Notes: generated by a model from the letters alone, not told the origin. DNA of 64,000 nt from Patescibacteria group bacterium UBA1388 (GCA_002305355.1 DBQS01000036.1:15612-79611), one strand, 5' to 3'; positions 8,326 through 39,023 are shown, numbered from the stretch's first letter. Made by a program: numbers and translations.

Positions 8326-8401
8326 GCCTTCGTAGCTCAGGTGGCAGAGCGCTTTCTTGGTAAGAAAGAGGTCTCGGGTCCGACTCCCGACGAAGGCTCC
8401 A
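8326..8401 (+). tRNA. tRNA-Thr (anticodon GGT)
   Basis: Cloverleaf: acceptor GCCTTCG/CGAAGGC, D-stem GCTC/GAGC, anticodon loop TTGGTAA, T-loop, encoded CCA. Confidence 0.85.
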
Positions 8402-8852
8402 AAGAAGATGGTGGAGTTGATTGGAGTTTAGTTGCCGGCAAAATATTTCTTCACAAACTTGGAGGGTTGTGGATTTTACTTCCGACCAAATCTTCAGCTT
8501 CCATAATTTTTGTTTTTCTAACGGACAAAACTCATTTGAAAAGTGGAACGTTTTGCACATATTATTGAAAACATATTAGTTTTTAGACAACTCAGTATTA
8601 TTTAGACAAGTCAGTTTTTGGTCGATCTAATGTAGCAGATCTCCAAAATTATTCACTGGAAACAAACTTGTCACGCATGGCAAATAAAAGTGGTTAACAA
8701 AAACAATTAACCCGCGCAGTGGCAAAACTTGGATCATTGATCAATAAATTTATACTCAGCCATTATTTTCACAGACCATCCCCCCATGCGAAGAGGATAT
8801 CTAATGTAGTACAATATGACTTCGGCTGATATTTTATTACCAGTCCAAAGGT

Positions 8853-8935
8853 GCCAGGTTACCCAAGCGGTCAACGGGGGCAGACTGTAAATCTGCTGGC
8901 TTACGCCTTCAGAGGTTCGAATCCTTTACCTGGCA
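8853..8935 (+). tRNA. tRNA-Tyr (anticodon GTA), long variable arm
   Basis: Acceptor GCCAGGT/ACCTGGC, anticodon loop CTGTAAA, long variable arm, T-loop TTCGAAT; CCA not encoded. Confidence 0.85.
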
Positions 8936-8956
8936 CTTTTTTAGTGGACAAAAAAT

Positions 8957-9331
8957 ATGCATTTGAATTTTGAAGAATCACCATATTTATTTAACAGGTA
9001 TTCTTCTCAAACTCGCCCTAATACGGAGCTGACTGGCTCGACATTTCGGGAAGATTGGGAAACTGATTATCCCATGGCGGGTTGTGTCTTAAATCACACT
9101 GATCCTCTTACAATCATTTCAGCTGCTCAAAAAAACGGGATTGCTTTTAACTTTGAACAATTTTTACACGCGATGCAATGGGACCCAATGACTCCTTTTG
9201 TCGTTGATTTTAATGGTGGAAGAGTGAAATATTCCAATTTTCTAGAGGTGGTTGGGGTACTCAATCGGTTGCATGCATTAACACATCCCTTCCCGAAATT
9301 AAATCAAAAACAAAGCAGAATTAGCCAATAA
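8957..9331 (+). CDS. Hypothetical protein (124 aa) lying between tRNA genes
   Basis: Open frame only; no recognisable motifs. Confidence 0.35.
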   Translation: MHLNFEESPYLFNRYSSQTRPNTELTGSTFREDWETDYPMAGCVLNHTDPLTIISAAQKNGIAFNFEQFLHAMQWDPMTPFVVDFNGGRVKYSNFLEVVGVLNRLHALTHPFPKLNQKQSRISQ

Positions 9332-9343
9332 CTAGCCTTTAAA

Positions 9344-9352
9344 TGATACAAT
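9344..9352 (+). promoter_or_regulatory. Extended -10 element TGaTACAAT, 12 nt upstream of the tRNA-Thr(TGT) 5' end
   Basis: TGn+TACAAT motif; the same motif recurs upstream of tRNA-Trp, rpmB, purB and cysS. Confidence 0.35.
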
Positions 9353-9363
9353 ACATGGGTAGA

Positions 9364-9437
9364 GCCACCTTAGCTCAGTTGGTCAGAGCGACGGTTTTGT
9401 AAACCGTAGGTCTAGGGTTCGAGTCCCTAAGGTGGCT
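9364..9437 (+). tRNA. tRNA-Thr (anticodon TGT)
   Basis: Acceptor GCCACCT/AGGTGGC, D-stem GCTC/GAGC, anticodon stem ACGGT/ACCGT with loop TTTGTAA, T-loop TTCGAGT. Confidence 0.85.
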
Positions 9438-9795
9438 CAGATTGGTGAAATAGCATATGTTGGAACTAAATTTATGATTGAAATGAAGTGCTATGGTTCA
9501 AGACCAGAAGTATCACTCAGCTCTGATGAAAATTTGCACACTTTTCATAATGCATAAGAAGTAGTAATTTCCTTATTGAAAGGTTAAGTTTGAGGTATGG
9601 TAATAATGAACAAGATGGAACTCATGGTGTTCATAGGAGAAAAAGAGGACGACCACGCAAAGTGAGAGCAGAAATAAGAAAAGCGGAAGCAGAATTAGAA
9701 AATTAACGTCAAGTATGCTAGCTGGCTATAATCTGAGATTTGAGTTATACTACGCCTCTTGAAATAAAATTTTTAAGTGTTTTTGAAAGAAAAAT

Positions 9796-9999
9796 ATGGC
9801 AAAAGCAAAAAAAGGACCACGCCAAATTGTAGGGTTAAAATGCAAAGCATGTGGCAATTTTGGTTACTTAACGGAGTTTAACAAAAATAACGAACAGTTG
9901 AAAAAACAAACCACTGGTGAAACAACTTTCCCCCTGAAGAAGTATTGTGCTGTTTGTCGCAAGCACACCGTGCACGTTCAGGCGAAGAAGTTAAAATAA
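9796..9999 (+). CDS. rpmG: 50S ribosomal protein L33
   Basis: 67 aa, KCKACGN...CAVCRKHTVH C4 zinc ribbon, lysine-rich, L33-like. Confidence 0.8.
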   Translation: MAKAKKGPRQIVGLKCKACGNFGYLTEFNKNNEQLKKQTTGETTFPLKKYCAVCRKHTVHVQAKKLK

Positions 10000-10101
10000 C
10001 TTCCAAATTTTCCGCCTAACCCTAAAACTGTTTACAATTACTGGCCGGTTTATCTATAGGGGGGGTTATTGCTTGTCGAAAACTTTCCCGATCAAGTTCA
10101 T

Positions 10102-11445
10102 CTATTTGGTTTTTCTATTGACGCTGAGTTTGCTGATCTGTTTGTAAGCAGCCACGATATTTTTGGCGCCATTAAGATATAACCGATCAATTCGAAGGAC
10201 ATTGTGCATTGCTTTTTCAATCCAAGATTGGGCTTTTCCTTGGGCAGATTGTAGGACAGCAAGTTGAGTCAGAATTTGCTCGACATTGGCGCGGCGGCTG
10301 ATGTCTTGCTGCTCAAATATTTCCCTAATCCGGTGCTCCCATTCACCCCACTCGCGTAAGGTGAGCACAAAGCAGCCCGCTGCCACAGCATCATAAGTCA
10401 TATCACCTGAGGGCTTGGTAATAAAACCATGCGCCCATGGAAAGGCGTATTTGATTAATAGTTCATTGGCATCCACAATCTGGGGGTGGTAGAGCAGCCG
10501 TAACTTTGCGGAACGATCATTGTCTGCTCCCACAGCTACGCGGTGTTGTTTAGCCATTTCTCTAACCATGGTAGCAATATCGTGGTGAGTGCCAGCATAG
10601 ACAATTAATTTTAAAGCAGGTTTTTGTCTCCTTAATTCTGGCAGAAACTGAAGGAGCAATTGCTCAATCTCGGTTTTATTGGTGCCGAGCCCGCCAGTAG
10701 TTAACGCAAGTTTTAATACACCAGATCGCCATGGTGTTTTTTTCTCTCTACAAGCCACAATTCGGGGATCGACTGGTGAACCAGTCACAAAAATTCGAGA
10801 TGCATCCAATTTTTTGTCTTGAAGCGCAGCCTTTTCCAAAAGTTCCAATTTTGTGTTTTCATCAAAAACGCAGTAATAAAGGTTTGGTTGATCGGCGTAT
10901 GTGACGTAATCGTATCGCACATGAGGATCGGTAATAACCTGTAACACGGTCTTACCTTGACCCACCAAAATGTTTCCGGTGGCAACGTGCAAAGATAAAA
11001 TTGGCCGATTCACACTTTCTGTTAAGTAGAGTAAGGGTTCGGTGATACTGTTTAAGATAGGTAATTTTTGTCTCCCAAATCGGTCAATAAGATCTTTGAC
11101 GTTTTTTAAAATTGGATAACGGGCGATAGTTTTTCCTACTTTGTCCGTCAACTGGACAGAAAACCAATCATCAGCGGAGACATAATTAGTCGGGTCTGCC
11201 AGCCACGCTTTTTTAGGATCTTGTTTACCTCCCCAAACCTGACATGCGACACCAACCGCCATTGAATAATGGGCCCGAGAAAAAACTATATCCTGGGTAG
11301 TGTCAATGTCTGGTAAACCATGCATTTTTTTCAGATCTTCTTGATAAGTGCCAGAAACCGTCACAATTGGTAGCTGGGTTGACTGAAGATACTTTTTGTC
11401 TTTTCTTAGGGTTTTTTCAAGGACGGGGTCAAATAATTCTGGCAT
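10102..11445 (-). CDS. Glycosyltransferase, GT28/MGDG-synthase (UgtP/MurG-like) family
   Basis: LALTTGGLGTN resembles the N-terminal G-rich loop; ITKPSGDMTYDAVAAGCFVL resembles the C-terminal xTKPGGxTxxEAxA motif of MGDG synthases. Confidence 0.45.
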   Translation of the reverse strand: MPELFDPVLEKTLRKDKKYLQSTQLPIVTVSGTYQEDLKKMHGLPDIDTTQDIVFSRAHYSMAVGVACQVWGGKQDPKKAWLADPTNYVSADDWFSVQLTDKVGKTIARYPILKNVKDLIDRFGRQKLPILNSITEPLLYLTESVNRPILSLHVATGNILVGQGKTVLQVITDPHVRYDYVTYADQPNLYYCVFDENTKLELLEKAALQDKKLDASRIFVTGSPVDPRIVACREKKTPWRSGVLKLALTTGGLGTNKTEIEQLLLQFLPELRRQKPALKLIVYAGTHHDIATMVREMAKQHRVAVGADNDRSAKLRLLYHPQIVDANELLIKYAFPWAHGFITKPSGDMTYDAVAAGCFVLTLREWGEWEHRIREIFEQQDISRRANVEQILTQLAVLQSAQGKAQSWIEKAMHNVLRIDRLYLNGAKNIVAAYKQISKLSVNRKTK

Positions 11446-11593
11446 GAAATCTAGTTTATAAGTTTTCTGTCTGGTCGTCTAGAGGAAGACTGGGCAAAAC
11501 AAAGTGCCAATAAATGGATGAAAAACTTCTCCAGATCAAAATAAATTTAAATGAGGATTGGCTAACTTAACGTGTGATCGATTGAACAGATTA

Positions 11594-12223
11594 CTAAATA
11601 CCGATTTGTTGAATCGTCACTTGTTCACTCACAAAGATGCCGTAGTTACAAGGGCATTGACCGCCGGTATTAATGTTCTCACCTGAGGATGGGGTAGGGT
11701 TGGCAAATGCCATCACCTCAATCATCTGCACTTGATTATTCATAAGCCGCAAATAACCGGCTACTGAACCAAAAGGACTTTGTATATCCTGAGTGTTGAT
11801 CCGGTAACCATTGATTTCAAGTGATTTAGAAAAGCCCTGATTGGTGAGGTATTGGTCGGCAGCGGTCATGAACTGTTCTGGTGAGAGTGCAGGTTGACTA
11901 CTGGTCGATGCATTAACATCTTGATTAAGATCAACTGTAGTTTCCGCGACCCACAACTGCCCATTTGGAAAAAAAGATCTGTGGTCATTTGTAGAAGTTG
12001 ATTCAACTGTCAATAACGGTTGGTAACTTTGAAAAAAGATCGGTCGATTATCATTCGTTGTTTTGGTAAAACTCAATTCAGGGTAGAGGTTTGATATTTG
12101 TTCGGCTGAAACTAAGGTCAAAGTAGGTGGAAACAGTTGAGTTCGAAATTTGAACATTAAAAGCCCGGTTGCCAATATTGCCGTTAATAAAATTACAAAT
12201 AAATATAGTCTCTTTTTGCTCAT
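11594..12223 (-). CDS. Hypothetical secreted protein (N-terminal signal/TM)
   Basis: N-terminus MSKKRLYLFVILLTAILATGLLMF; nothing else recognisable. Confidence 0.45.
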   Translation of the reverse strand: MSKKRLYLFVILLTAILATGLLMFKFRTQLFPPTLTLVSAEQISNLYPELSFTKTTNDNRPIFFQSYQPLLTVESTSTNDHRSFFPNGQLWVAETTVDLNQDVNASTSSQPALSPEQFMTAADQYLTNQGFSKSLEINGYRINTQDIQSPFGSVAGYLRLMNNQVQMIEVMAFANPTPSSGENINTGGQCPCNYGIFVSEQVTIQQIGI

Positions 12224-12302
12224 GGGGAGTAGCTTATCATGAAATAATGAATGGAACTATTTTGTATAAGTAGGATGAAACTAAAATATTACCTGGTCTT
12301 TA

Positions 12303-12311
12303 TGTTACAAT
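12303..12311 (+). promoter_or_regulatory. Extended -10 element TGTTACAAT upstream of tRNA-Trp
   Basis: Motif lies 36 nt upstream of the tRNA 5' end. Confidence 0.35.
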
Positions 12312-12347
12312 TCTTGGCGAAGGTGCGCGAGTTGTTGTGCCTGAGTT

Positions 12348-12418
12348 AGGGGCGTCGGTTAACGGTAAACCACAGGTCTCCAAAACCTGAACTGAAGGTT
12401 CGATTCCTTCCGCCCCTG
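12348..12418 (+). tRNA. tRNA-Trp (anticodon CCA)
   Basis: Acceptor AGGGGCG/CGCCCCT, D-stem GGTT/AACC, anticodon stem CAGGT/ACCTG with loop CTCCAAA, T-stem GAAGG/CCTTC with TTCGATT; CCA not encoded. Confidence 0.8.
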
Positions 12419-12431
12419 CTTTAATAAATTT

Positions 12432-25261: not shown

Positions 25262-27493
25262 TTATGATGATAGTTGAAGTTGAGCAGAAATGGAGGCCAA
25301 AAGATCTAAAGCGAGCTGATTATCTGGAGAAATGTTTGCTAAGATGTATTTCAATTGCTCAGCAGCTTCTTCAAGTTGATTGTTTTCGTAGTATGCGACC
25401 GCTAATTGATAATGTGCTACTTCATAGTCTGGTTTAAGGTTTACAGCTTGTTGTAAATGATCCAGTCCCTGGTCTATTTGCTGCAAACTAATTTCGATTA
25501 GTCCCAAATTATACAATATTTTTGGATCAGTGGAGGATAACTTTTGAGCAATTTCCATTGCTTCAGCGGCTTTAACCAAATATTTGGGGTCTAGTTGGGA
25601 AAGGGTAATAAATGTTCTGGCGCGAGTTTTATAAAAATTAAGTTGATGGGGGTTGAGTTTCATAACTGCCTCACTGCTTTGTTCAGCAGCAGTTGCAAAT
25701 TGTTGCGCCTCTTCCGGTTTTTCACTCTGGGCGAGGTTAATCGCGGCCGTCGCGAAAACGGTGGCCAACTGATCATAGTAGGTTGCTTCATATTTATTAA
25801 GCTCAATAGCACGGTAGAGACTAGTGATGGCGGCTTCGGGCTGGCCGGCAGCGGCAGCAGATTTTCCTTGAGAGTAAGCCAGATCAGCCTGCCAGTAGCG
25901 TAGGGTGGCGCTGAGACTCAGTAAGCCGGCCAGCCCTGCCGCGCTCATTAATAATATTTGTGTCAGATTAAGTCCTCGGTGTGATGTTTTATCTTCAGGC
26001 CATTCATAAATAGGTTGGTTGATTAAAACCATCACTGCCATGAAAAGGTACATTAAAATGGTGACCATTACCGTAGAAAATCCAAAAAAATTTGAGAGAC
26101 TGAGGGCTGCCACGCCAGCGAGCACTCCCGCTGACAATAGCTGCATATGCTGATCGGAGGTTGGCACATGAGGTTGAAAAATTTTAATCAGACTAAAAAT
26201 CCCGAACCAACCGAGTAATAACAAGTAGCTCGCTAACCCAACTGCGCCACTAGTTGCTAAATAATTTAGAAATTCATTGTGCGCTTTATTGTATAAAAAA
26301 TCCCATTCTGAGACAAAATTGTGATCAACTGGTCGGTCGAGATAATAACTATAAGCGAAAGTTTCCAGACCCGAACCGAAAATTGGATAACGCTGCCAGA
26401 TTTTTATCGCTCCGCTCCACACAATTTTTCTAATCTCGCCGGAATCTGTCCCTCCGGTTTCCAACCGGTTGACAACCGGCATAGACTCGGTATCCGTCGC
26501 GACCTGATTAGTCTGACTGGTATTCCACTTGAGGGTTGGGGTATAAGGAGCATCAATCAGTACCGTCATCAATAAGCAAATACTGATTACCACTGAAAGG
26601 AGCTGCCACCGCTGTTTTATCAGAGAAATAAGCATCTTTTGGCGTTTTAAAATCCATAGCAATAACACAAAGAGAATGGTTAATCCCAACCCTAACCCTA
26701 AAATACCAGACCTAGATTTAGTAAATAATAGGGTGGCAAACATCAAAATAAGTGATCCAGCATAGAGCCATCGCAACCGTTGTTTTCGATTGATTAACGT
26801 GAACACCGCTCCAACCGGAATCAGCGTGATGAGATAAGCCGCGAGCCAATTTGGTTGACCGAAGCTGGCAAAAACGCGGTTTTGCACATCCTGAACCCAG
26901 CAATTGACTCCAAAAGAAGTGCCTTTAGTGGCGAGCCAGCAGCTAATGGAATGACCAAAGTGTTCAAGACTAGCATAAACAGAAGTCAAAACTGCAGCGA
27001 GAAAGGTGGTTAAAAACAAACTTGGAAGATGTTTTTTTTGAATATTGGTTACAAAAGCATAATAAAGTGCCACATAAGTGATAATAGATAGTAATCCACC
27101 GTGAAAACGCGAGTAGTACCCAAATAGAGAAGTATAAGGATGGAGTGAAAAAATAGTAGCCAGCAATTGAGACAGCAAAAAAACCACGATGGGAATATCC
27201 AGTGGCGTACGACGAAAGACAAACTGTTTAGCGGCAATCATTTTTACCACCCAGGCTAATATGATGATAATTGCTAAGGCATAAGTGAGCACCATCTTGT
27301 TAAACTCAAAGAGCTCACTGGTGTTAAACCAGAAAAATAAAGGTACCATCAAAAGAAGCGCATGAAAGCTTGTTACCAAAGTAGCTTGGGACCACTGCAA
27401 CAAACCGGACTCTTGATGATTGTGAAGAGCAGCGGCAGATTTAGTTTGAGTTGGTTGTTGACGCGCTAGTTTGCGGCGATGTTTTTTTGACAC
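25262..27493 (-). CDS. O-antigen ligase (Wzy_C) family polytopic membrane protein with C-terminal TPR repeats
   Basis: Multiple TM helices; NKAHNEFLNYLATSGAVGL Wzy_C motif; C-terminal 200 aa with TPR-like repeats (AYSQGKS..., YNLGLIEISLQQIDQGLDHLQQAVNLKPDYEVAHYQLAVAYY). Confidence 0.7.
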   Translation of the reverse strand: MSKKHRRKLARQQPTQTKSAAALHNHQESGLLQWSQATLVTSFHALLLMVPLFFWFNTSELFEFNKMVLTYALAIIIILAWVVKMIAAKQFVFRRTPLDIPIVVFLLSQLLATIFSLHPYTSLFGYYSRFHGGLLSIITYVALYYAFVTNIQKKHLPSLFLTTFLAAVLTSVYASLEHFGHSISCWLATKGTSFGVNCWVQDVQNRVFASFGQPNWLAAYLITLIPVGAVFTLINRKQRLRWLYAGSLILMFATLLFTKSRSGILGLGLGLTILFVLLLWILKRQKMLISLIKQRWQLLSVVISICLLMTVLIDAPYTPTLKWNTSQTNQVATDTESMPVVNRLETGGTDSGEIRKIVWSGAIKIWQRYPIFGSGLETFAYSYYLDRPVDHNFVSEWDFLYNKAHNEFLNYLATSGAVGLASYLLLLGWFGIFSLIKIFQPHVPTSDQHMQLLSAGVLAGVAALSLSNFFGFSTVMVTILMYLFMAVMVLINQPIYEWPEDKTSHRGLNLTQILLMSAAGLAGLLSLSATLRYWQADLAYSQGKSAAAAGQPEAAITSLYRAIELNKYEATYYDQLATVFATAAINLAQSEKPEEAQQFATAAEQSSEAVMKLNPHQLNFYKTRARTFITLSQLDPKYLVKAAEAMEIAQKLSSTDPKILYNLGLIEISLQQIDQGLDHLQQAVNLKPDYEVAHYQLAVAYYENNQLEEAAEQLKYILANISPDNQLALDLLASISAQLQLSS

Positions 27494-27741: not shown

Positions 27742-28836
27742 ATGTTAGGTATTGTTATGAATGATGACTCCTCACTCAACCAAAAGTCACACTATGTGGA
27801 TGCATATCAGCCTCCAAACCAACCGTCTGGCTCACCCGTTAATAAAGCTGCAGGACAAACCTCAAGTCAGTCCACTGATCAGTTTTCAGGGCAGCACTCT
27901 ACTGGTCAGTCAACAACTGGTCGAGTAACTGATCAACCGGTGGTTTCGCCGTCTGCGCAACCTCTTGATGAGCCCTCTGATCAGTTCACTACCCAATCGT
28001 CTGATCAACCTGTTGACGAACTTACTGATCAATTGACAAGCCAACCATTTGATCAATCTCCTGACAAATTTAATGATCAGTCAGCTCAATCACCAATTCA
28101 AAAAACAAATCAATCAGAGGACCAATTACCTAATCAAACATCAGACCAACTTAGTAGAGAAGAGTTGTTGGATCAATTTTCCACGCAACCCGCTGATCAA
28201 TCTCCAACCCAGCAAGACAACGAGTTTTCTACTCAATCTCCCAATCAGGTATCGGAGAGTAAACCACTTCATCAATCTGTCGATCGATCTCCAGAAGACC
28301 AACCTTCTCTTCAATCAGCAGCAGATGACATAGTTTCAGATCCAAAATTGCCCTCCCTTGATGATGGAAAAGTGTCTTCTGCCACCGCAACATCCAATTC
28401 AGAAGCTCTTGAAGACCAAAATATTTTCTTTTTATTAGGGGTAAGTGATGGTTCAAACGAGCAGAAAGAATCTTTTTTAGACGAACTGCAGGAAGTGATT
28501 TGGGAGGATTTTTTGGAGTATGATGTCAAATTGTTAATCACCAACGATGAACAACAGCAATTACAGCAATTGTTGAGCTCAAATCAAGGTTCTGAAGAGC
28601 AACGTCAAGAAGCAGTTGTGCAATTTCTGGAGAAGTTGATTCCTGATCTTGAAGAGATCATGCTTGAAAAAGCGATGGAGTTAAAGGCAGAAATGGTGCG
28701 AGAACGGGCTTCCGGTTTGCGCACTTATTATGCAGACAACGCCCAAAAATTAAATCGCGTTGGAGATGCTGAAAAATTAATGGATGAAAATAAATGGTAT
28801 TCGGCAGCTCACTTAATGAATAGTTTGGCCGCTTAG
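27742..28836 (+). CDS. Asp/Gln/Ser-rich intrinsically disordered protein with a structured C-terminal domain
   Basis: About 230 aa of degenerate repeats (SDQ, TDQ, DQS) with no TM; C-terminal about 130 aa is not low-complexity. Confidence 0.55.
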   Translation: MLGIVMNDDSSLNQKSHYVDAYQPPNQPSGSPVNKAAGQTSSQSTDQFSGQHSTGQSTTGRVTDQPVVSPSAQPLDEPSDQFTTQSSDQPVDELTDQLTSQPFDQSPDKFNDQSAQSPIQKTNQSEDQLPNQTSDQLSREELLDQFSTQPADQSPTQQDNEFSTQSPNQVSESKPLHQSVDRSPEDQPSLQSAADDIVSDPKLPSLDDGKVSSATATSNSEALEDQNIFFLLGVSDGSNEQKESFLDELQEVIWEDFLEYDVKLLITNDEQQQLQQLLSSNQGSEEQRQEAVVQFLEKLIPDLEEIMLEKAMELKAEMVRERASGLRTYYADNAQKLNRVGDAEKLMDENKWYSAAHLMNSLAA

Positions 28837-28970: not shown

Positions 28971-30038
28971 GTGTGTTATACATTAGCTGCGATGAAGCAA
29001 CGTCCCAAAATACTTCGCTCTATTCATCTTCAGTCATCAAACAAGGTGATATATTTGGAAATTGGCTCTTCACAAGTCAAGGTGATGGTCAATAGCAAAC
29101 TTGTTTTCAATCAACCAAGCTGTATTGCCATTAACCCCGCTCAGCAGAGCATACTTGCCTTTGGTGACAAAGCCTATCAGTTATTAGGTAAAAGAAGACA
29201 TGATTTGCAGGTGGTCTTTCCGATCAAGAATGGAGCAGTTGCAAACCGAGAGCATTTTCAACTCCTGACGGAAGCTATAAGTAATCACCTGCACCTCGAA
29301 GCCGATTGGTGGAAAATATTGTCTCCCCAACGTTGCATTATCGCGATGTCTGATGCATTGACTCCCGCCGAAAAAGAACAAACCATCCGCCAATTTTCAC
29401 ATTTGAAATTAGGCAAGCAAAGTTTTTTTTCCTCAGAGCTGGCTGTAGCCATGCAAGCTGACCGCTGTCACTTGGAATCATCTACCAATTATTGTTTGAT
29501 CAATATGGGAGGGATGATTACGACTGTTGCCATTGTCCAAAGAGGGGAACTTACTCACGCTGAAAGAATTTTTGTGGGTGGAGTGCATTTTACTGCTGCC
29601 GTACAACATCTTGTGCGATCTATTGAAAACTGCGCTATTAGCTGGCATGAGGCAGAAAGGGTTAAAAAGAATATTGGCTTTATTGAACATGCCAACACAC
29701 ATCTTACGGTAATCAATAAAAAATTATCAGTTACAGGAAAGGACATTGCTTCACAGTTAGGTAAAACAGTCATCATTTCAGCAAAACAGGCGAGTAGGGG
29801 ATTTGGAAGTCTAGTCGATGATTTGGTAGTGGGTTTGCAACATTTTTTTAATAAAGTACCACCAGAACAGGTGACGGATTGTTTGCAAAATGGTGTTTTT
29901 TTAACCGGAGGAGCAATGCAGCTGACTGGGATGAGGGAAATTTTCCAACACCATCTAAAAGCAGAAACGGTCATGTCTGACCAACCAGAGCTTGATGTAG
30001 TTATGGGTTTAGAAAAATTGGCTACCCGTGATCAGTGA
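28971..30038 (+). CDS. mreB: Rod-shape-determining protein MreB-like actin homolog (GTG start; divergent nucleotide-binding motifs)
   Basis: IYLEIGSSQVKVMV (phosphate-1), INMGGMITTVAIV (phosphate-2) and FLTGGAMQLTGM (adenosine motif); followed by mreC/mreD/PBP2. Confidence 0.65.
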   Translation: MCYTLAAMKQRPKILRSIHLQSSNKVIYLEIGSSQVKVMVNSKLVFNQPSCIAINPAQQSILAFGDKAYQLLGKRRHDLQVVFPIKNGAVANREHFQLLTEAISNHLHLEADWWKILSPQRCIIAMSDALTPAEKEQTIRQFSHLKLGKQSFFSSELAVAMQADRCHLESSTNYCLINMGGMITTVAIVQRGELTHAERIFVGGVHFTAAVQHLVRSIENCAISWHEAERVKKNIGFIEHANTHLTVINKKLSVTGKDIASQLGKTVIISAKQASRGFGSLVDDLVVGLQHFFNKVPPEQVTDCLQNGVFLTGGAMQLTGMREIFQHHLKAETVMSDQPELDVVMGLEKLATRDQ

Positions 30039-30838
30039 GGACAGTGATGATTAGACTTAATTCTTGGAGCAATTCTATCAACAGTTTTTCTTTTTATTAT
30101 GGAGTATTGATAATTTGTGGAATCGCTATCTTTTTGATTGAACAAGTGAGGTGGGATTTATTTTTAAGGACAAGACTGCAATGGATGACTGTGCCAGTGA
30201 GTCAAATGATCGCTCGGGGCGTGGAGTTGACAACCCATCCCGCTTATTCTTTGAGTGTTTATTTTTCGGATGCTACAGAACTTGATCGCTTGCGAACACA
30301 ACACGCTCAAGACTTAGTTACTATTGCAGAGCTTGAATATTTAAAAGAGGAAAATGAAATCCTCAAAAGGATGCTTCAAGGAGAAAGTAATACGCACCAG
30401 TCTAAGATGATTGCTGCTCCAATCACTTCCTATGCATACCCAGCAATTGGCATAGGATCGTCGGCAGGAGTAAGGGAAGGACAGGTTGTTGTTGCTCATC
30501 AGACTCTGCTTGGAAAAATCACTGAAGTTGAGTCTGATCAATCGAGAGTACAACTCTTGTTTAATCTTGATTCACAACCAATTTTGGCAGAAACCACCTC
30601 TGGTGTGCAAGGACTAATCAAAGGTACAGGAAAAAAAGTGATGTTGACAGAGGTATTACCAGATAGTCAACTGACGATTGGTGATAAAGTAATAACCTCA
30701 GGACAACCCGGCATTAAGCAGGGGTTACTTGTGGGGGTGATTGTCGCTGTTACTCCTCCATCATCAACCCCTACTCAAACGGCAGAGATTGATCAATTAG
30801 TCTCTTTTTATACCACGCCCTTAGTAGAAGTTAGGTGA
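30035..30838 (+). CDS. mreC: Rod-shape-determining protein MreC (GTGA overlap with mreB)
   Basis: N-terminal TM, coiled-coil segment (ELEYLKEENEILKRML), beta-rich C-terminal domain; position between mreB and mreD. Confidence 0.6.
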   Translation: MRTVMIRLNSWSNSINSFSFYYGVLIICGIAIFLIEQVRWDLFLRTRLQWMTVPVSQMIARGVELTTHPAYSLSVYFSDATELDRLRTQHAQDLVTIAELEYLKEENEILKRMLQGESNTHQSKMIAAPITSYAYPAIGIGSSAGVREGQVVVAHQTLLGKITEVESDQSRVQLLFNLDSQPILAETTSGVQGLIKGTGKKVMLTEVLPDSQLTIGDKVITSGQPGIKQGLLVGVIVAVTPPSSTPTQTAEIDQLVSFYTTPLVEVR

Positions 30839-30844
30839 CCTAAT

Positions 30845-31291
30845 ATGCTTTGGGAAATAATAAAATATGTAATTCAGTTTTTGGTTATTAGTCTGGTGCT
30901 GTTGATTGAACAGGTGCTATCTTTGCCCTTCATTTTTTTTACGCTCTTGATTTTATGGACTAATTTCCAGACTAAACCAATGCTGATTTTGACAACTGTA
31001 CTCATGTCTTTGTTTTGTGCAGTTGTTTTTAGTGAAAGTTGGCTACTGATGTTTGGTTTTATTATTGTGACAGTGAATGTTATGAAATTATGGCAGACTA
31101 AGTATGGGAAAACATGGTGGCTTAGCAATTTACACATATTGTTCACAGTCGCTTTTTTTTCAATGTTTGTGCCACCACAGCCAACCGCTCAGTTTTTAGT
31201 TTTTTCTGGTCTAAGTTATGTAATTAGCTTGATAATATTATGGAGCAATTATCGTTGGGTGAACAAAAACAAATTTTATCGCTCATTTTAG
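30845..31291 (+). CDS. mreD: Rod-shape-determining protein MreD (polytopic membrane)
   Basis: 148 aa with 4-5 TM helices; assigned by operon position only. Confidence 0.45.
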   Translation: MLWEIIKYVIQFLVISLVLLIEQVLSLPFIFFTLLILWTNFQTKPMLILTTVLMSLFCAVVFSESWLLMFGFIIVTVNVMKLWQTKYGKTWWLSNLHILFTVAFFSMFVPPQPTAQFLVFSGLSYVISLIILWSNYRWVNKNKFYRSF

Positions 31292-31322: not shown

Positions 31323-33311
31323 GTGACAAAAACAGACCACCAAATTCGTCATTTTTGGCTTGTAATGATTTTAATCTTATTAAGTGGGACGCTAACTTTT
31401 GTGAGATTAATTGATGTGCAAGTGATTAGGGGAGAGCATTTTCTGGAATTAGCAGAAGCGAATCGGTTATTTAAAATTACTTTACCCAGAATGAGAGGCT
31501 TAATTGTGGATCGTTATGGCAAGCCATTGGTTAAGAATTATCCCATTTACTATCAAATATCTGATCCCCATCAAGTGTATGCAGCTAAACAAATTATTGC
31601 CGCAGATTTAGCTTTGTCACTAATGGCTACCCAAAGCGGTAGTGTGGAAACAACCGTAAGAAGAGTTTACCCACTAGGTGAAGTATTGGCGCCGGTAATT
31701 GGTTACACGGGTGTGGTTTCTGCAGAAGACTTACAAAAGGATAAAAATTTGCAACCAACCGACCTAGTTGGTAAGCAAGGACTAGAACGTAGTTTTGATT
31801 TAAATTTGCGCGGTGAACTGGGAGAGGAATTATATGAAATTGATGCCATGGGACGAAAAAATAAATTAATTACTTCAAAATTAGGTGAGCCGGGACAAAA
31901 TGTAAAGACTTCAATTGACCCCTATTTGAGTCTAATTGCCTATGAAGCCATGGGAGATCACACCGGGGTAGTACTGATCACAGACGGCTCAACAGGTGAT
32001 GTTTTAAGTTTAGTGAGTGTACCGAGTTATGATGCCAACCTCATTACCGCTCGTTATGCAGATGAAAAATTAGAAAGATTTCGGCAGCAGACCGTGGCGG
32101 AGATGTTTACTGATGAAAGGCAGTTGTTTTTTAATCGGGCAGTAAGTGGTGTTTATCCACCCGGATCGGTGTTTAAATTGGTTACAGCAGCAGCAGGTTT
32201 GAGTACTGCCGCCATTGATGCACAAACGAGTGTCTTAGATGAGGGGGTATTGAAAGTAGGAGATTATTCTTATGCCAACTGGTATTACTCGCAGTATGGA
32301 GGTACGGAGGGAGAAATATCTTTGAGACGGGCCATTGCGAGAAGTAATGATATTTATTTTTACAAAGCGGCTGAATGGATCGGTCCCAATCGGCTTGCAG
32401 AAGCGGCCCGAGAATTTGGATATGGTCAACCAACTGGTATTGAACTAGCTGGTGAACAATCTGGACTTGTGCCGGACGTTGATTGGAAAGAGCAAGTGCT
32501 GGGAGAACGGTGGTTTTTGGGAAACACTTATCATTTTGGGATTGGTCAAGGCAACTTATTGGTTACTCCGCTTCAAGTGAATCAAATGACGCAAGTGTTG
32601 ATCAATCATGGATCAAGGTGCAGTCCGCGCCTGCTTCCATCATTGGAAACAGACTGTCATGGTGTGGCGCTGGCAGACGAACATCTGGATTTAATTTTGG
32701 CTGGTATGTTGGATGCTTGTAGTAGTGGGGGTACTGCCTATCCTTTTTTTTCATGGAACGAACGCCATCGTGAACAAGAGCTATCTGCATACGAGCAGAT
32801 AAAAAGAGGAGCAGTGGCGTGCAAAACAGGTACGGCAGAATTCGGAGGAAGCGACGAAAGAGGCTTCAAAAAAACTCACGGTTTGTTTGTAATGGCACTA
32901 GGTGTAGATGAATTATTAAAGCCCTTCTTGGAAGAGGTGACAACTGATGATTCTGCTCTAGCAAGTTCATCGGTAGTAAATATGAACGATCAAAACCTCG
33001 ATCAACAACCCAATGTTCAAAATATGACTCAGACAGAAGAAACTGAAGTTTCGCAGACAGCTGATAGAGTGCAGTTAAATTTGGAGAAATATCGTGATTA
33101 TCAGGCTTGGTTGGCAGAAATTAGGCAACATGATTTCCCGGAAAAAGTAGTCATCACAGTTTTGGTGGAAAGCGATGAGAAACAACCTTTTATGGAGGGC
33201 AGTCGTGATGCTGCGCCGGTGGCATTAGAGATTTTAGAATGGATGGTTCAAGGTTCGCCAGTGGAAGCTGCCCCATCTGTGGAAGCGCCGGCAGGAGTGG
33301 TAGGTGAGTAA
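31323..33311 (+). CDS. mrdA: Penicillin-binding protein 2 (transpeptidase) with an acidic C-terminal extension
   Basis: N-terminal TM; SxxK (GSVFK), SxN (RSND) and KTG (CKTGTA) motifs. Confidence 0.8.
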   Translation: MTKTDHQIRHFWLVMILILLSGTLTFVRLIDVQVIRGEHFLELAEANRLFKITLPRMRGLIVDRYGKPLVKNYPIYYQISDPHQVYAAKQIIAADLALSLMATQSGSVETTVRRVYPLGEVLAPVIGYTGVVSAEDLQKDKNLQPTDLVGKQGLERSFDLNLRGELGEELYEIDAMGRKNKLITSKLGEPGQNVKTSIDPYLSLIAYEAMGDHTGVVLITDGSTGDVLSLVSVPSYDANLITARYADEKLERFRQQTVAEMFTDERQLFFNRAVSGVYPPGSVFKLVTAAAGLSTAAIDAQTSVLDEGVLKVGDYSYANWYYSQYGGTEGEISLRRAIARSNDIYFYKAAEWIGPNRLAEAAREFGYGQPTGIELAGEQSGLVPDVDWKEQVLGERWFLGNTYHFGIGQGNLLVTPLQVNQMTQVLINHGSRCSPRLLPSLETDCHGVALADEHLDLILAGMLDACSSGGTAYPFFSWNERHREQELSAYEQIKRGAVACKTGTAEFGGSDERGFKKTHGLFVMALGVDELLKPFLEEVTTDDSALASSSVVNMNDQNLDQQPNVQNMTQTEETEVSQTADRVQLNLEKYRDYQAWLAEIRQHDFPEKVVITVLVESDEKQPFMEGSRDAAPVALEILEWMVQGSPVEAAPSVEAPAGVVGE

Positions 33312-33675: not shown

Positions 33676-35013
33676 TTAAATCAGCATCCGGCGCTGTTTG
33701 TCCCAATATGGACCTCGTCGACAGAGTAGTTGTTCAGCTTGCTCAGGATGAGCCATCAATTGCTGAACAGCAATTTCTAGAAGAAGAGTGTTTTGTGATC
33801 CTTTGATAAGCAAAACATCATTGGGCAGGAGTTGGTCTTTGAGTACATCTGCTGCTTGTCGGGCAGAATCATGGCAAGTGACTTTGATTTTGGCTTTTTG
33901 AAGGATTGGCAAAGCGTGTTCTGCCATGAGCGGTCCTACTAAATGCACTTGATCACAAACTTGCGCTGCTTTTTTTGCAACTCGAACATGAGCCGACATT
34001 GCAGAATCTCCGAGCTCACGCATATCTCCTAATAAAGCGAGCTTTCGCTTACCCTGAATTTTTGACAGTAATTCCAACATATCAATCATTGTTTGTGGGG
34101 AGGCGTTATAACTACTGTCAATCATTTGTGAATGATTGACGCCTTCAATAATACTCGAGCGGCCGGGTTCGAGTGAAAAATCTTGTTCAATGTGGCGAAT
34201 TGCTTGATTAATCGAAATACCCTGAGTAAAACCACAGCAAATTGCGGCGGCAAACGAGTGTCCAAAATGAACAGGCAAAATCATATTTTTTAGGTTTAGT
34301 TGATAGGTTTTTGCTTGATACTTAATTAAAAATCTGGTTTTATCTCTGCCATACTCAACGCCGGTAACTTTAACAATGGGGTGACCCATGGAGCCAAACG
34401 TCAATATCGTGGCTTGACTTTTTTGAATGATCTCTGCGCTTTGTTCATCATCGGTGTTGATAATACCTGTGGCTGATTTAGGAAGAGTAGTGATGATTTT
34501 GCCTTTTTCAAGAGCAATCAGTTTTGTGAGGTGTTTTTCCCGTTCACTAGCAGAAAGATTCTTGTTTTTGACAAGTGAGTCAAAGTTTTGGGTGTGTGAA
34601 AGGGCAGCATTCAAGAAAATGCCGACGTCAGGCGGAATAATCGAGAGTAAATAAGTCATGTTTTTAGGTGGCAATGGGCTATCAATACCCATTTCTACAA
34701 GATAAATTTCTGGTTGATCTTGATTAGTGATCAATTTTATTGGAGCAAGTAATGCGAGTCGCAGCCAATCAATGATCGAATAATTTGTTGGATGTAGGCC
34801 TAAGATATCCAAAGGAATTCCAGATTCAGAGTTGGCTTTATATGAAATTTTAACTTTGTATTTGGGTTTAAGTACAACTGCACAAGCTGCCATGGCACTA
34901 GTTTTGCCAGCACTGCCAGTAATTCCGATAATTATTGGGCGATGTTTTTTGAGCTGCAGACGAGCGATTGTACGCAAGTAGTTTAAAAACAAGGGGGTAA
35001 GGAAAACTTTCAT
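33676..35013 (-). CDS. murF: UDP-N-acetylmuramoyl-tripeptide--D-alanyl-D-alanine ligase (Mur ligase family)
   Basis: IIIGITGSAGKTS P-loop; IDSSYNASPQTM matches the MurF DDSYNANP motif. Confidence 0.7.
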   Translation of the reverse strand: MKVFLTPLFLNYLRTIARLQLKKHRPIIIGITGSAGKTSAMAACAVVLKPKYKVKISYKANSESGIPLDILGLHPTNYSIIDWLRLALLAPIKLITNQDQPEIYLVEMGIDSPLPPKNMTYLLSIIPPDVGIFLNAALSHTQNFDSLVKNKNLSASEREKHLTKLIALEKGKIITTLPKSATGIINTDDEQSAEIIQKSQATILTFGSMGHPIVKVTGVEYGRDKTRFLIKYQAKTYQLNLKNMILPVHFGHSFAAAICCGFTQGISINQAIRHIEQDFSLEPGRSSIIEGVNHSQMIDSSYNASPQTMIDMLELLSKIQGKRKLALLGDMRELGDSAMSAHVRVAKKAAQVCDQVHLVGPLMAEHALPILQKAKIKVTCHDSARQAADVLKDQLLPNDVLLIKGSQNTLLLEIAVQQLMAHPEQAEQLLCRRGPYWDKQRRMLI

Positions 35014-35340
35014 CTTATTAATTGTACATCATGTTTAATTATCATTTCCGCTCGAGTGAAAAGATATTTTCAAAGTGTGGCAGATTTGTGTTTTATCAGT
35101 TTTTATTAGAGATATGCCACCCAAAGCTCACTAATTTTCAAAGGCTCATTAACTTTCAGACTTGATTCATTATTGTGAGGATGAAAGCAGAGCAAGGCTA
35201 CAGATTGTGCAAGCTTAATTCATATACTAAGGGTAATTAACTCGCCTGCGGCGATTTAAAAAAAGAGATCACGATTAAGTATTTAATAAGTCACTTCTTT
35301 TATTTAAAACTATTAAAACTAATGTAACCAAGTAGCACCG

Positions 35341-36744
35341 ATGAATCAATTGATATCTCAAACATCCTCAACTCTGCGATTGAAAAAAGACTCAAAAAAC
35401 CTATTGGATTCTGAATTAAAGAACGAAGACGGGAAACACGAGTTACAGCTAAGTTTGGCGGCTCTAAGTACGATGAAGGGCATCGGGCCGGTGACCCAAA
35501 AAATGATTATTGCAGGACTGAATAAATACCGAATCAGCTGGCAGGAGTTTTGGGAAGGAAATGAGCTGCTATTTAAAAAAATTAAACTTAATGAAAAACA
35601 GATCAATAGCATTAAAAAGTTTATAAAAGAACAAACAATATACGCATATAAAGAAAAACTGGCGATTCGGGAGATCAGGATTATTACTTATATGGATGAA
35701 GAGTACCCACCACTGCTTACAGAATTGGAGCGGGCGCCTTTGGTTTTATTTGGGATGGGAAAAGTGATTAAGAATCCCGACCGACTATCTTTGGCGGTGG
35801 TGGGCGCCCGCGGGATGACTGCCTACGGAGCAAGTGTGACCGAGCAGTTGGTGATGGAACTTGTTGAGCAGGGTATTGCGATCAATTCCGGATTTATGTA
35901 CGGTGTTGATACAGCTGCTCATCAAGCAGCACTGCGCTATGGTGGCCATACGATAGGCATACTAGGATTTGGGTTTGGTCAGATGTATCCAGATAGCCAG
36001 CAACCGATATTTGAGCAGTGCTTGGCGGATGGAATGACTTTCTATTCTCCATTTGCACCTGATTTTCCGGCTAAAAAAGGTAATTTTCCTGCTCGTAATC
36101 AAATTGTGGCGGGTATGAGCCAAGGCGTTTTAGTAACTGAGGCTGCCGCGCACAGCGGCAGCCTCATCACCGCTGGGGCGGCGGCAGATTTGGGCAGAGA
36201 AGTCTTTGCCGTGCCTGGTCCAATTGATAGCCCATACAGTGAGGGCACGATGCACTTAGTTAACCAAGGAGCGACATTAATTAATTCTGGCTACGAAGTT
36301 GGGGAATACTTGCGCTGGCCCACTGGCAATCTGCCTTCATTAAGGTCGAAGATGCGACTAGTTGATGAAACATATCAATCATTTTCTTCAGCAATGTCTA
36401 AAGATCAACCGTCTTCAGACGTTTTATCATTCAACTCTCAATTTATACAGGATTGTCATCAACTAAAACAGCCCGATAATAAATTCTGTTTTACGCCCAC
36501 AACATCGATGAATTTATCTGGCAGGTTATTTCAGCTGAGTCAGCCATCTCCCCAATCCTTACTTGGATTTCTCAACAGTTTTGATTTTCAATTGCTATCT
36601 AAACTCGCTTCACGAGGACATTCTTTTGATCAGCTCTGCGAATTGCTAGTTTGTCCTGCACCTCAGCTCAGTCAAGCGCTTGGGAAGTTGGAAGTTGCAG
36701 GTCTGGTGATGAATTTGGGAGATAATTGGCAGATTGTGAAATGA
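35341..36744 (+). CDS. dprA: DNA processing protein DprA (Smf) with a C-terminal extension
   Basis: Rossmann-like core LAVVGARGMTAYG...GVDTAAHQAALRYGGHTIGILGFG...LVTEAAAHSGSLITAGAAADLGREVFAVPG. Confidence 0.8.
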   Translation: MNQLISQTSSTLRLKKDSKNLLDSELKNEDGKHELQLSLAALSTMKGIGPVTQKMIIAGLNKYRISWQEFWEGNELLFKKIKLNEKQINSIKKFIKEQTIYAYKEKLAIREIRIITYMDEEYPPLLTELERAPLVLFGMGKVIKNPDRLSLAVVGARGMTAYGASVTEQLVMELVEQGIAINSGFMYGVDTAAHQAALRYGGHTIGILGFGFGQMYPDSQQPIFEQCLADGMTFYSPFAPDFPAKKGNFPARNQIVAGMSQGVLVTEAAAHSGSLITAGAAADLGREVFAVPGPIDSPYSEGTMHLVNQGATLINSGYEVGEYLRWPTGNLPSLRSKMRLVDETYQSFSSAMSKDQPSSDVLSFNSQFIQDCHQLKQPDNKFCFTPTTSMNLSGRLFQLSQPSPQSLLGFLNSFDFQLLSKLASRGHSFDQLCELLVCPAPQLSQALGKLEVAGLVMNLGDNWQIVK

Positions 36745-36887
36745 TGTCAACTTGATTGGTCAAATCTCGCGAAACGCTGTGTAACTTGCAAGCTGCGTTA
36801 AAATACAATCCGATTGACAGCACCTTGAATTCAGTTCGAAATCAAAATTGGTAACATTGCCAAACAAGCAGCTGTCAGTTATAGTTT

Positions 36888-39023
36888 GTGCTTATGAATC
36901 TTGTCATTGTGGAATCACCAACGAAAGCGAGAAAACTGAGATCATACTTGGGAAATGATTTTCAAGTTGAAGCATCAGTAGGTCACATTCGTGATTTGCC
37001 AAAGAAAAAAATGGGAGTTGATATTGATCATAATTTCCAACCCACCTATGAAGTTAATCCAGATAAAAAAGACGTAATTAGCACGCTTAGAAAAGAAGCT
37101 AAATCAGCCAAAATTATTTATTTGGCAACTGATCCTGATCGGGAAGGAGAAGCTATTGCATGGCATATTACTCATGTGTTGAATGGTAATAAGCCAAACT
37201 TTAAACGAGCCACATTTCATGAAATTACCAAATCAGCGGTGCAAGCAGCCATTGAAAATCCGGGCGAACTAAATATGGATTTAGTCAACGCGCAGCAAGC
37301 ACGCCGAATTGTTGATCGGTTGGTAGGGTATGAAGTCTCACCGGTGTTGTGGAAAAAGGTGAGGCGGGGTTTGTCTGCTGGTCGCGTGCAGTCAGTAGCA
37401 CTCCGACTAATTGTGGAACGTGAGCGGGAAATTGAAGCTTTTGTCCCAGATGAATATTGGGAAGTTGATGTTGCTTTATCAGTAGAAAGCAATCCACCTT
37501 CACAAATTTTTGAAAAAGGCAAAGCATCTGAGTCATTACCAGCTGGTAGTTTGATTGCACGATTGATTAAAATAAATAATCACAAGTTTGAACCCAAGAA
37601 AAAACAAGATTTAGGTGATCTTGATCAAATCTTACCGCAGGCAAAATATGTTGTATCGCAAGTTGACCGTAAAGAAAGACGCCGCAAAAGTTTACCACCT
37701 TTTACTACTTCCACGTTACAACAAGCGGCTGCTAATAAACTTGGAATGAGCAGTAAACAGAGTATGAAGCTTGCTCAGGATTTGTATGAAGAGGGTTTAA
37801 TTACTTATCATCGTACAGATTCAGTTAATCTTTCAGCCGGAGCGATTCAAGATGCGCGTAAATTTATTGGTGATCAGTTTGGAGATAAGTATCTACCTGT
37901 TCAAACTAGGATTTTTAGCAATAAGAGCAAGAATGCACAAGAAGCTCACGAAGCGATTCGAGTGACTGATCTACACATTTCTGATGAGAGAGTGATTGAT
38001 CAGGCAAAAAGACTAACTCATCGCCATGCGCAACTTTATGACTTGATTTGGCGCAGGTTTTTAGCAAGCCAAATGAATGAGGCGATTTATGATCAGACAA
38101 ATTTATTGATTGATGCGGAAGTGATGTCATCGCAAGCTGGATTTAAGTCTGCCCAATTCAAGTCAACGGGATCAGTTCTCAAGTTTGATGGCTGGATGAA
38201 GTTATTCCCCAATAATGGTGATTCTATTTTGCCAGATGTTAAAACGAATCACATCCTCAACTATGTAGACCACTTGCTGGCTCAGAAATTTACTCAGCCA
38301 CCAGCCCGCTACAACGACGCCTCACTTGTGAAGGAACTGGAAAAACGTGGTATTGGTCGACCGAGTACTTATGCCAGCATCATCTCTGTGATTGAAGAAC
38401 GTGGCTATGTGATGAGAGATGATCGGAAATTTAAAGCTACGCCAGTGGGGATGACGGTTAGTAATTTTCTGCTCAAACACTTTCCTGTGTTTATGGAATA
38501 TGAGTTTACTGCTGAAATGGAAGAAGACTTGGATAGGATTTCGAGAGGGGAAAAAGCATGGGCAAAAGTGGTAAAGGCTTTTTACACTCCCTTTCACCAA
38601 AAGGTAGTAGATGCAGAGGCTGCCGAGCGGACTCAAGTGCCAGTTGAAAAAACTGGTGAGCCTTGTCCGTTATGTGGAAAGACTGAAAAAGGAGAGATTG
38701 TAATTCGCAGCGGAAGATTCGGTAAATTCAAGAGTTGCAGCCGATTTCCTGAGTGTGAGTTTACTGAAAATATTGTAGACACAATTCCTGGAGTAAAATG
38801 CCCGCTGTGTGGTAAGGGTGAAGTAATTTCAAGAAATACGAGATGGGGAAAGAAGTTTTTTGGTTGTTCAACTTATCCGGAGTGTGATTGGGCAAGTTGG
38901 AAGCAACCACAGCCGGGAGATAAGATTTCCAAAACTGAGTGGAGAAAGCAGCAAAAAGCTCGCGCCGAACGCAAAAAAAAGCGAGAAAAAAGTCGGAAAA
39001 AGAAAACAAAAGTCAAATCTTAA
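36888..39023 (+). CDS. topA: DNA topoisomerase I
   Basis: N-terminal Toprim (VIVESPTKARKL..GHIRDLP); two C-terminal CPLCGK zinc ribbons; lysine-rich tail. Confidence 0.9.
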   Translation: MLMNLVIVESPTKARKLRSYLGNDFQVEASVGHIRDLPKKKMGVDIDHNFQPTYEVNPDKKDVISTLRKEAKSAKIIYLATDPDREGEAIAWHITHVLNGNKPNFKRATFHEITKSAVQAAIENPGELNMDLVNAQQARRIVDRLVGYEVSPVLWKKVRRGLSAGRVQSVALRLIVEREREIEAFVPDEYWEVDVALSVESNPPSQIFEKGKASESLPAGSLIARLIKINNHKFEPKKKQDLGDLDQILPQAKYVVSQVDRKERRRKSLPPFTTSTLQQAAANKLGMSSKQSMKLAQDLYEEGLITYHRTDSVNLSAGAIQDARKFIGDQFGDKYLPVQTRIFSNKSKNAQEAHEAIRVTDLHISDERVIDQAKRLTHRHAQLYDLIWRRFLASQMNEAIYDQTNLLIDAEVMSSQAGFKSAQFKSTGSVLKFDGWMKLFPNNGDSILPDVKTNHILNYVDHLLAQKFTQPPARYNDASLVKELEKRGIGRPSTYASIISVIEERGYVMRDDRKFKATPVGMTVSNFLLKHFPVFMEYEFTAEMEEDLDRISRGEKAWAKVVKAFYTPFHQKVVDAEAAERTQVPVEKTGEPCPLCGKTEKGEIVIRSGRFGKFKSCSRFPECEFTENIVDTIPGVKCPLCGKGEVISRNTRWGKKFFGCSTYPECDWASWKQPQPGDKISKTEWRKQQKARAERKKKREKSRKKKTKVKS

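Follow-up and report, generated by a model that had tools for sequence, protein, structure and literature searches.

A family of acidic, modular proteins encoded in front of the mreBCD-pbp2 genes of Patescibacteria

Protein A, the 364-residue product of a gene at 27742–28836 (plus strand) of the stretch of DNA analysed here, is a soluble, cytoplasmic and strongly acidic protein of modular build. It represents a family of Patescibacteria that is undescribed: there is no Pfam model, no relative of the fold in the Protein Data Bank (PDB) and no literature. The stretch, referred to as the window, comprises 64,000 nucleotides from Patescibacteria group bacterium UBA1388 (GCA_002305355.1, DBQS01000036.1:15612-79611). 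Protein A consists of three parts, namely an N-terminal motif (YVDAYxPP), an acidic linker for which disorder is predicted and, at the C-terminus, a helical domain, and its gene is located directly before the genes of the Rod machinery, mreB, mreC, mreD and pbp2. As a type, protein A is familiar, being a modular accessory protein of a cytoskeletal gene cluster equipped with a disordered spacer. The reading preferred here, held tentatively and at somewhat less than an even chance, is that protein A is a soluble adaptor whose helical domain carries a core function and whose motif, borne on the acidic linker, couples it to the Rod system.

Patescibacteria are ultrasmall, mostly uncultured organisms whose cell biology is almost unknown. 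A protein restricted to this clade and better conserved than MreB, MreC and PBP2 points to an important and unstudied function. If the model of a motif on a tether holds true, it would reveal a new partner for a bacterial actin that has diverged strongly, and the tether would be a natural case of a disordered spacer of free length in a minimal cell; should the model prove false, structural and interaction studies would still have a well-defined target in the family. The interest lies in the conserved C-terminal domain and in its modular relation to the Rod genes. The Asp-Gln (DQ) repeats, the run of GATC sites and the supposed paralogues on which a first-pass annotation of the window had dwelt are by-products of a lineage-specific repeat expansion.

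Architecture of protein A

The gene was delineated by an open reading frame (ORF) scan and through its homologues. Its true start is likely to be the methionine at residue 6 (27757), with which the initial methionine is aligned in at least 90% of 91 homologues. The whole protein has a net charge of −41. The first-pass annotation had listed this ORF together with two others, here termed B and C, and had described all three as devoid of a signal peptide; the three ORFs are indeed present, and the highest mean hydropathy over 19 residues on the Kyte–Doolittle scale is 0.66 for A, −0.08 for B and 0.93 for C. The lack of a hydrophobic segment in any of them fits the absence of signal peptides and transmembrane helices.

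The N-terminal motif, YVDAYQPP, occupies residues 18–25 (27793–27816, plus strand) and has the family consensus Y-[VA]-D-x-Y-x-P-P. Residues Y18 and Y22 are kept in at least 90% of the 91 aligned homologues, and a strict regular expression recovers the motif from 146 of the 221 members searched. An arrangement in which the motif would dock on the C-terminal domain of the same molecule and thereby inhibit it is unsupported: in the AlphaFold2 (AF2) prediction the predicted local distance difference test score (pLDDT) is 54–61 and no confident docking appears.

The motif is followed by an acidic linker of approximately 195 residues (residues 26–219; 27817–28398, plus strand), which is predicted to be disordered and contains about 31 aspartates and glutamates against 9 lysines and arginines; its net charge per residue (NCPR) is −0.11 and proline accounts for 9.6%. 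The AF2 model of full-length protein A assigns no secondary structure to residues 1 to ∼218, with pLDDT values of 39–61. Across the family the linkers range from 18 to 325 residues (median 61; 79 ± 57), some members having almost none. They are net negative in 139 of 146 members, contain 16.5% proline and are rich in P, S, A, T and Q.

The conserved domain extends over residues 220–364 (28399–28836 including the stop codon, plus strand). It is approximately 145 residues long, starts LEDQNIFFLLGV, displays 32 invariant columns across 80 sequences and carries a net charge of about −17, the value across the family being −19 ± 4. Modelled by AF2 with the family alignment, the domain is predicted to fold into a compact bundle of six helices (pLDDT 90.2; predicted template modelling score, pTM, 0.78). 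The expectation of a coiled coil or of a small structured domain at the C-terminus of A is thus borne out in its second half: the domain is structured, but it is not a coiled coil. No entry of Pfam, NCBIfam or PHROGs matches it above threshold, a sequence profile search against the PDB gave no match, and Foldseek found no fold relative in the PDB or in BFVD. An internal duplication, with three helices repeated as three, was considered and rejected (hhalign, 0.2%).

Size and range of the family

With the last 157 residues of protein A as query, 376 homologues were recovered at E ≤ 1e-3, with identities of 55–74%. All are unnamed or annotated as ‘hypothetical’, and those that bear a label belong to Patescibacteria (Pacebacteria, Woesebacteria). 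An exhaustive profile search across 1.84 billion representatives delivered 295 family clusters at 50% identity, of which 190 have E ≤ 1e-30; the profile matches the C-terminal end of every listed family protein, and the informatively labelled members come from Microgenomates-type lineages (Pacebacteria, Woesebacteria and Microgenomates). Many family-bearing metagenome-assembled genomes (MAGs) that are otherwise Patescibacteria-like are titled ‘uncultured Pseudomonadales bacterium’ (loci L007–L086), and single ones are titled Limisphaerales, Methylococcaceae, Vitreimonas and Gillisia. These titles are probably taxonomy label errors in public records.

The closest orthologue of A is a protein of 315 residues (L007), encoded in the same MAG as the locus L005 described below. 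The two proteins are 88% identical over the N-terminus and 87% over the domain but 35% over the linker, and the reading frame is kept. The homologues, the clusters and the preservation of the frame across a change of 50 residues in length establish A as a real gene. The first-pass annotation had reserved the case that the ORFs might lack conservation in related genomes, and for A the opposite is observed.

Gene neighbourhood and loss of the Rod genes

Downstream of A, and likewise on the plus strand, lie the genes for a divergent MreB (28971–30038; Pfam MreB_Mbl, 3e-45), for MreC (30035–30838; Pfam MreC, 1.3e-21), for a small hydrophobic protein of 148 residues in the position of MreD (30845–31291; no match in Pfam or NCBIfam) and for a PBP2-type transpeptidase (31323–33311; Pfam Transpeptidase, 7e-46, and PBP_dimer, 1.5e-23). 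The placement of A directly before an mreBCD-PBP2 operon, as first annotated, is therefore correct. An ORF of 136–154 residues occupies the MreD position in four other loci (L001–L004). On the opposite side, on the minus strand, is the gene for a membrane protein of 743 residues of the Wzy_C (O-antigen-ligase-like) type with C-terminal tetratricopeptide repeats (TPRs) (25262–27493; Pfam Wzy_C, 2.7e-19, and TPR). Its gene is adjacent to def and fmt, and the protein has 13 predicted hydrophobic segments, odd-numbered loops that are rich in lysine and arginine and a C-terminal TPR tail of 214 residues; from this topology the tail is probably extracytoplasmic.

Four annotated relatives, with identities of 54–61%, share the order fmt-def-Wzy_C (minus strand) followed by A, MreB, MreC, a small transmembrane ORF and PBP2. 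The gap between A and mreB is 22–77 bp in all four, and in the window no terminator-like site is found between the two genes. A wider survey covered 80 species-representative loci, 78 of which have room downstream of A. In approximately 72 of the 78 species, at identities down to 43%, A precedes mreB-mreC-mreD-pbp2 on the same strand, displaying the co-location and co-orientation expected of a Rod accessory protein. By tblastn, the next gene downstream of A is mreB in 55 of these 78 loci, and most of the remainder contain an ORF of ∼290–337 residues between A and MreC. Seven of ten such ORFs that were scanned match MreB_Mbl with 17–69 bits, three of them over the Pfam cut-off, and on account of these weak matches they look like divergent MreB. 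One locus harbours an ORF of 630 residues without a Pfam match between the A-homologue and mreB (L039, 6525–8417). The conserved position, the short gaps and the lack of a terminator make a link to morphogenesis reasonable on the principle of guilt by association.

Among the products of the cluster the A domain is the most conserved, coming first at 49 of the 52 loci compared; its median identity is 56%, followed by PBP2 with 48%, Wzy_C with 44.5%, MreC with 36% and MreB with 28.5%. The MreB of this clade seems unusually divergent and in the process of decay. In the window it is 21% identical to Escherichia coli MreB, and its phosphate-2 motif reads NMGGMI in place of DIGGGT. Several lineages have versions of 290–300 residues that fall below the Pfam threshold, at one locus MreB survives only as a remnant of 121 residues (L027), and at another there is no MreB and MreC comes directly after A (L048); MreC and PBP2 remain in all these cases.

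Four further loci (L074, L083, L084 and L086) have neither mreBCD-pbp2 nor the Mur ligase gene at this site, and dprA directly follows the A-homologue. The gene topA comes after dprA in L083 and L086, the two loci checked, and a divergent Wzy_C gene is still upstream of A in L074, L083 and L086. The corresponding backbone in the window runs Wzy_C, A-mreBCD-pbp2, Mur ligase (minus strand), dprA-topA, and the interval with which the four loci compare is 33676–39023. As judged at this locus only, the Rod module appears to have been cleanly excised from the conserved backbone. In these four loci protein A is reduced to 158–188 residues, having lost the motif and the linker and retained a well-conserved C-terminal domain. 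Over the whole survey, 73 loci have an MreB-like ORF, and about 49 of them contain the strict motif; none of the six loci without an intact MreB does. This association between loss of the motif and loss of the Rod genes is suggestive.

Possible functions of protein A

In the adaptor model, the C-terminal domain would exert a core function that is independent of the Rod system by binding a conserved partner. The N-terminal motif, displayed on a flexible and self-repelling acidic tether, would be an accessory arm that couples this core to the Rod machinery (MreB, MreCD and PBP2). The sequence of the linker would be of little importance and slippage of repeats would let its length drift, so that neither the DQ repeats nor the GATC density would have a function of their own. 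That the core function is not specific to the Rod system is argued by the persistence of the domain where the Rod module is missing and by the tighter pairing of A with Wzy_C, which is its most invariant neighbour, upstream and divergent in 65 of 67 loci.

A number of observations weigh against the adaptor model. The pairing with Wzy_C is one of them, and another is that gene order is the sole ground for connecting A to the Rod system. The coincidence of motif loss with Rod loss amounts to approximately three independent events, as the four Rod-less loci form one clade. MreB-bearing genomes without the motif exist: one encodes an A-homologue of 155 residues (P0103), and the strict pattern is not matched in 24 of the 59 loci positive by tblastn. 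The disorder of the linker is deduced solely from low pLDDT and composition. Furthermore, a Rod accessory protein might be expected to disappear along with the Rod genes, and the A domain is retained in six loci (L027, L048, L074, L083, L084 and L086) despite the loss of MreB or of the whole module, as judged at the locus. The proposal of the first-pass annotation that A has a role in morphogenesis or division is consequently left in an intermediate position, favoured by the conserved place before mreBCD-pbp2 and disfavoured by the retention of A in loci where MreB is decayed or missing.

It is quite possible, although well short of probable, that protein A has no specific connection with the Rod system and serves some other conserved process, for example with the Wzy_C/TPR protein as an envelope glycan enzyme or with a general housekeeping partner, the gene order being simply inherited. 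The same six loci speak for this explanation, as A is intact where MreB is a remnant, is absent or has gone together with its module; so do the constancy of Wzy_C as divergent neighbour and the conservation of the A domain, twice that of MreB. The series fmt-def-Wzy_C, A ... dprA-topA is moreover a stable backbone, many genes of which are functionally unrelated. Inheritance of gene order accounts less readily for a same-strand, short-gap place before mreB in some 72 of 78 species down to 43% identity, or for the disappearance of motif and linker in exactly those loci that have no Rod module. As to Wzy_C itself, a contact between the A motif and its TPR domain was considered and is disfavoured: the TPR tail probably lies outside the cytoplasm and A has no export signal.

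The adaptor model also admits a more far-reaching version, which is rather unlikely: the A family would be an unrecognised, lineage-specific part of the Patescibacterial elongation machinery and a soluble substitute for RodZ. The YVDAYxPP peptide would sit on the highly divergent MreB or on the cytoplasmic face of MreCD/PBP2 and the helical domain on a second essential partner, and an entropic acidic spacer of free length would keep envelope synthesis linked to some other core process. RodZ, a bitopic membrane protein, has a helix-turn-helix (HTH) domain at its N-terminus. It is a component of the elongasome that links MreB to RodA-PBP2 and has a disordered linker, as is generally known and as passages of two papers indicate (PMC13584716, PMC9804626). 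If the adaptor reading holds, A would resemble RodZ as a Rod accessory factor with a disordered linker joining MreB to other parts. Unlike RodZ, A persists at loci without Rod genes and possesses neither a HTH domain nor a hydrophobic segment: no RodZ-type HTH was detected with Pfam or NCBIfam, no secondary structure is predicted for the first 218 residues, and no transmembrane helix of the RodZ type is present, in keeping with the low hydropathy maximum given above. A further parallel is offered by repeat-expanded disordered linkers such as the C-terminal linker of FtsZ, a hypervariable spacer of low complexity between a folded domain and a short conserved terminal peptide. As in A, the length of the spacer varies between species and the ends are conserved; the polarity is reversed, the peptide of A being N-terminal, and there is no homology.

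The scaffold or condensate suggested by the first-pass annotation has its nearest counterpart in PopZ (polar organising protein Z) of the alpha-proteobacteria, which starts with a short client-binding region, continues with a disordered linker that is acidic and contains proline, and ends in a helical domain (PMC9512792). By analogy, A would be a self-assembling hub whose domain oligomerises, whose linker tunes the material properties and whose motif recruits clients such as MreB. This is highly unlikely, in spite of a three-part layout that the two proteins have in common (PMC9512792) and that A reproduces with its motif, its net negative, proline-containing linker of low pLDDT and its helical domain at residues 220–364; both proteins also have a poorly conserved linker sequence and a conserved helical C-terminal domain and are cytoplasmic without a membrane anchor, and the negative, proline-rich character of the linkers extends across the A family. 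The two also differ in several respects. By sequence, A is related neither to PopZ nor to other Pfam families: the PopZ model is not matched by full-length A at E ≤ 0.01, by the domain at E ≤ 10 or by 80 members at E ≤ 1. The PopZ linker is tightly constrained, at 93 ± 1 residues in Caulobacterales (PMC9512792), whereas the linkers of the A family are hypervariable and some members are almost linkerless. PopZ has a three-helix oligomerisation module, as opposed to the ∼145-residue bundle of six helices that in A is modelled as a compact monomer, and it belongs to a different phylum and gene context. Finally, the whole of A is polyanionic, which disfavours homotypic condensation without a cationic partner.

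A relation of the A domain to DUF5663 (PF18908), as a very distant and extended member, is unlikely on the sequence matches at hand. DUF5663 comprises small helical proteins of no known function, mostly from bacteria of the candidate phyla radiation, a range that overlaps with that of the A family. The A domain matches nearly the whole of the profile (positions 12–83 of 84, 13.3 bits, E=0.13) with its first four helices, and of 80 members three reach E ≤ 1, the best with E=0.005. However, every score remains under the gathering threshold of 23.7 bits, 77 of the 80 members do not match, and DUF4942 is matched by more members (14 of 80) at a similarly non-significant level, so that matches of this kind resemble noise for helical acidic sequences. 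The A domain is also ∼60 residues longer and fused to a motif and a linker, and no paralogue bridging A to DUF5663 was found among the 3172 ORFs of the window and 86 loci. Membership would in any case assign no function. No literature was found on the A family, on DUF5663 or on Patescibacterial partners of MreB. The supposition that the ORFs of A, B and C are low-complexity stretches without coding function, or else true paralogues, has a negligible probability. It could draw on the alternative-frame ORFs that, in the ORF scan, overlap the repeat region of A, and on the similar composition of A and B. Against it stand the strong conservation of A as a protein, the ten homologues of C, the two homologues and one diverged counterpart of B, and the lack of homology among the three in pairwise and profile comparisons.

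Repeats and GATC density

The core of the linker of protein A consists of degenerate xxDQ repeats of four or eight residues (residues 73–168; 27958–28245, plus strand), which are the source of the run of GATC and TGATCA sites. Glutamine recurs at lags of 4, 8, 12 and 16 (p<2e-4, 5000 shuffles), the linker contains 12 DQ dipeptides as against 3.5 expected and a shuffle maximum of 10, and Tandem Repeats Finder (TRF) detects a 48-bp unit at 27977–28081. Whole proteins A, B and C contain 13, 8 and 2 DQ dipeptides over a background of 0.49 per 100 residues; A and B are the sole outliers among the 57 putative genes of the window, and A has the highest count among the family members examined. The Pfam PT disordered repeat (PF04886) reaches 25.9 bits on residues 58–91, just under its gathering threshold of 26.2 bits, a compositional match within the linker.

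The DQ composition of the linker is lineage-specific. The linker of the closest orthologue (L007) is also DQ-rich, with different units (DQPxDQP, GQSxGQ) and with 50 residues fewer than that of A. Such divergence between conserved ends is what one would expect if the spacer changes by slippage and only its composition is constrained. Shorter inserts rich in D, Q, N and E occur in other proteins of the window, namely PBP2 (31323–33311, residues ∼555–595, e.g. NDQNLDQQPNVQNMTQTEETEVSQ) and the products of 506–2677 and 5148–6983 (both minus strand), which suggests a genome-wide tendency to gain acidic or polar tracts of low complexity.

GATC sites number 12.8 per kb in A, 11.8 in B, 3.1 in C and 4.6 in the whole window, and the claim that the repeats generate a high density of such sites therefore applies to A and B and fails for C. 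In A, 12 of 14 GATC sites are in frame as GAT-Cxx, 9 of these encode D-Q, and all 8 TGATCA sites encode xDQ. A role of the run as a methylation or regulatory feature was rejected; it is a by-product of GAT-CAA codon pairs. GATC is over-represented across the window as a whole, with 293 sites observed and 210 expected under a first-order Markov model.

Proteins B and C and other features of the window

Protein B (51686–52447, plus strand; 253 residues) combines a DQ-rich acidic N-terminal half (residues 1–128) with a C-terminal half rich in Ala, Glu, Gln and Lys. Its two detected homologues are 97% and 70% identical, the latter differing from B by an indel of a 25-residue repeat. The C-terminal half (residues 129–253) matches, at E=0.008, an ORF of 143 residues that lies upstream of the C homologue in a more distant genome (L006) and has no DQ region. 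From this counterpart it follows that B, like A, consists of an older core to which a DQ-rich acidic expansion has been added in its lineage.

Protein C (52603–53250, plus strand; 215 residues) belongs to a separate small family without a match to known families. Its ten homologues are 34–98% identical and 207–221 residues long, ∼210 being typical, and two terminal motifs are invariant in the 11 aligned sequences: RPRPGGGFNxGMGQFGEHLDE... and ...KGPIGPAG..RQxL..SAN. The description of all three proteins as dominated by DQ repeats or by Gly/Gln/Ala-rich tracts suits A and B; in C, with its two DQ dipeptides, the Gly/Gln-rich N-terminus is a strictly conserved motif. Likewise, the term ‘compositional paralogues’ can be retained for the composition of A and B only. 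BLASTP among the three proteins yields no real homology, A and B sharing nothing but low-complexity matches, and profile-profile comparison of the A and C families by hhalign gives a probability of 0.4%; a paralogous relationship is rejected.

In the window the B-C pair lies between hpf and cysS, and the arrangement is syntenic in the closest relative (L005); in L006 the C homologue is preceded by the B-like ORF mentioned above. Between hpf and B there is an additional ORF of 150 residues (51089–51541, minus strand) without a match in Pfam or NCBIfam, and L005 has an equally long ORF at the corresponding place. The sole Rfam matches in the window are four tRNA genes (Thr-GGT, Tyr-GTA, Thr-TGT and Trp-CCA) at 8326–12419.

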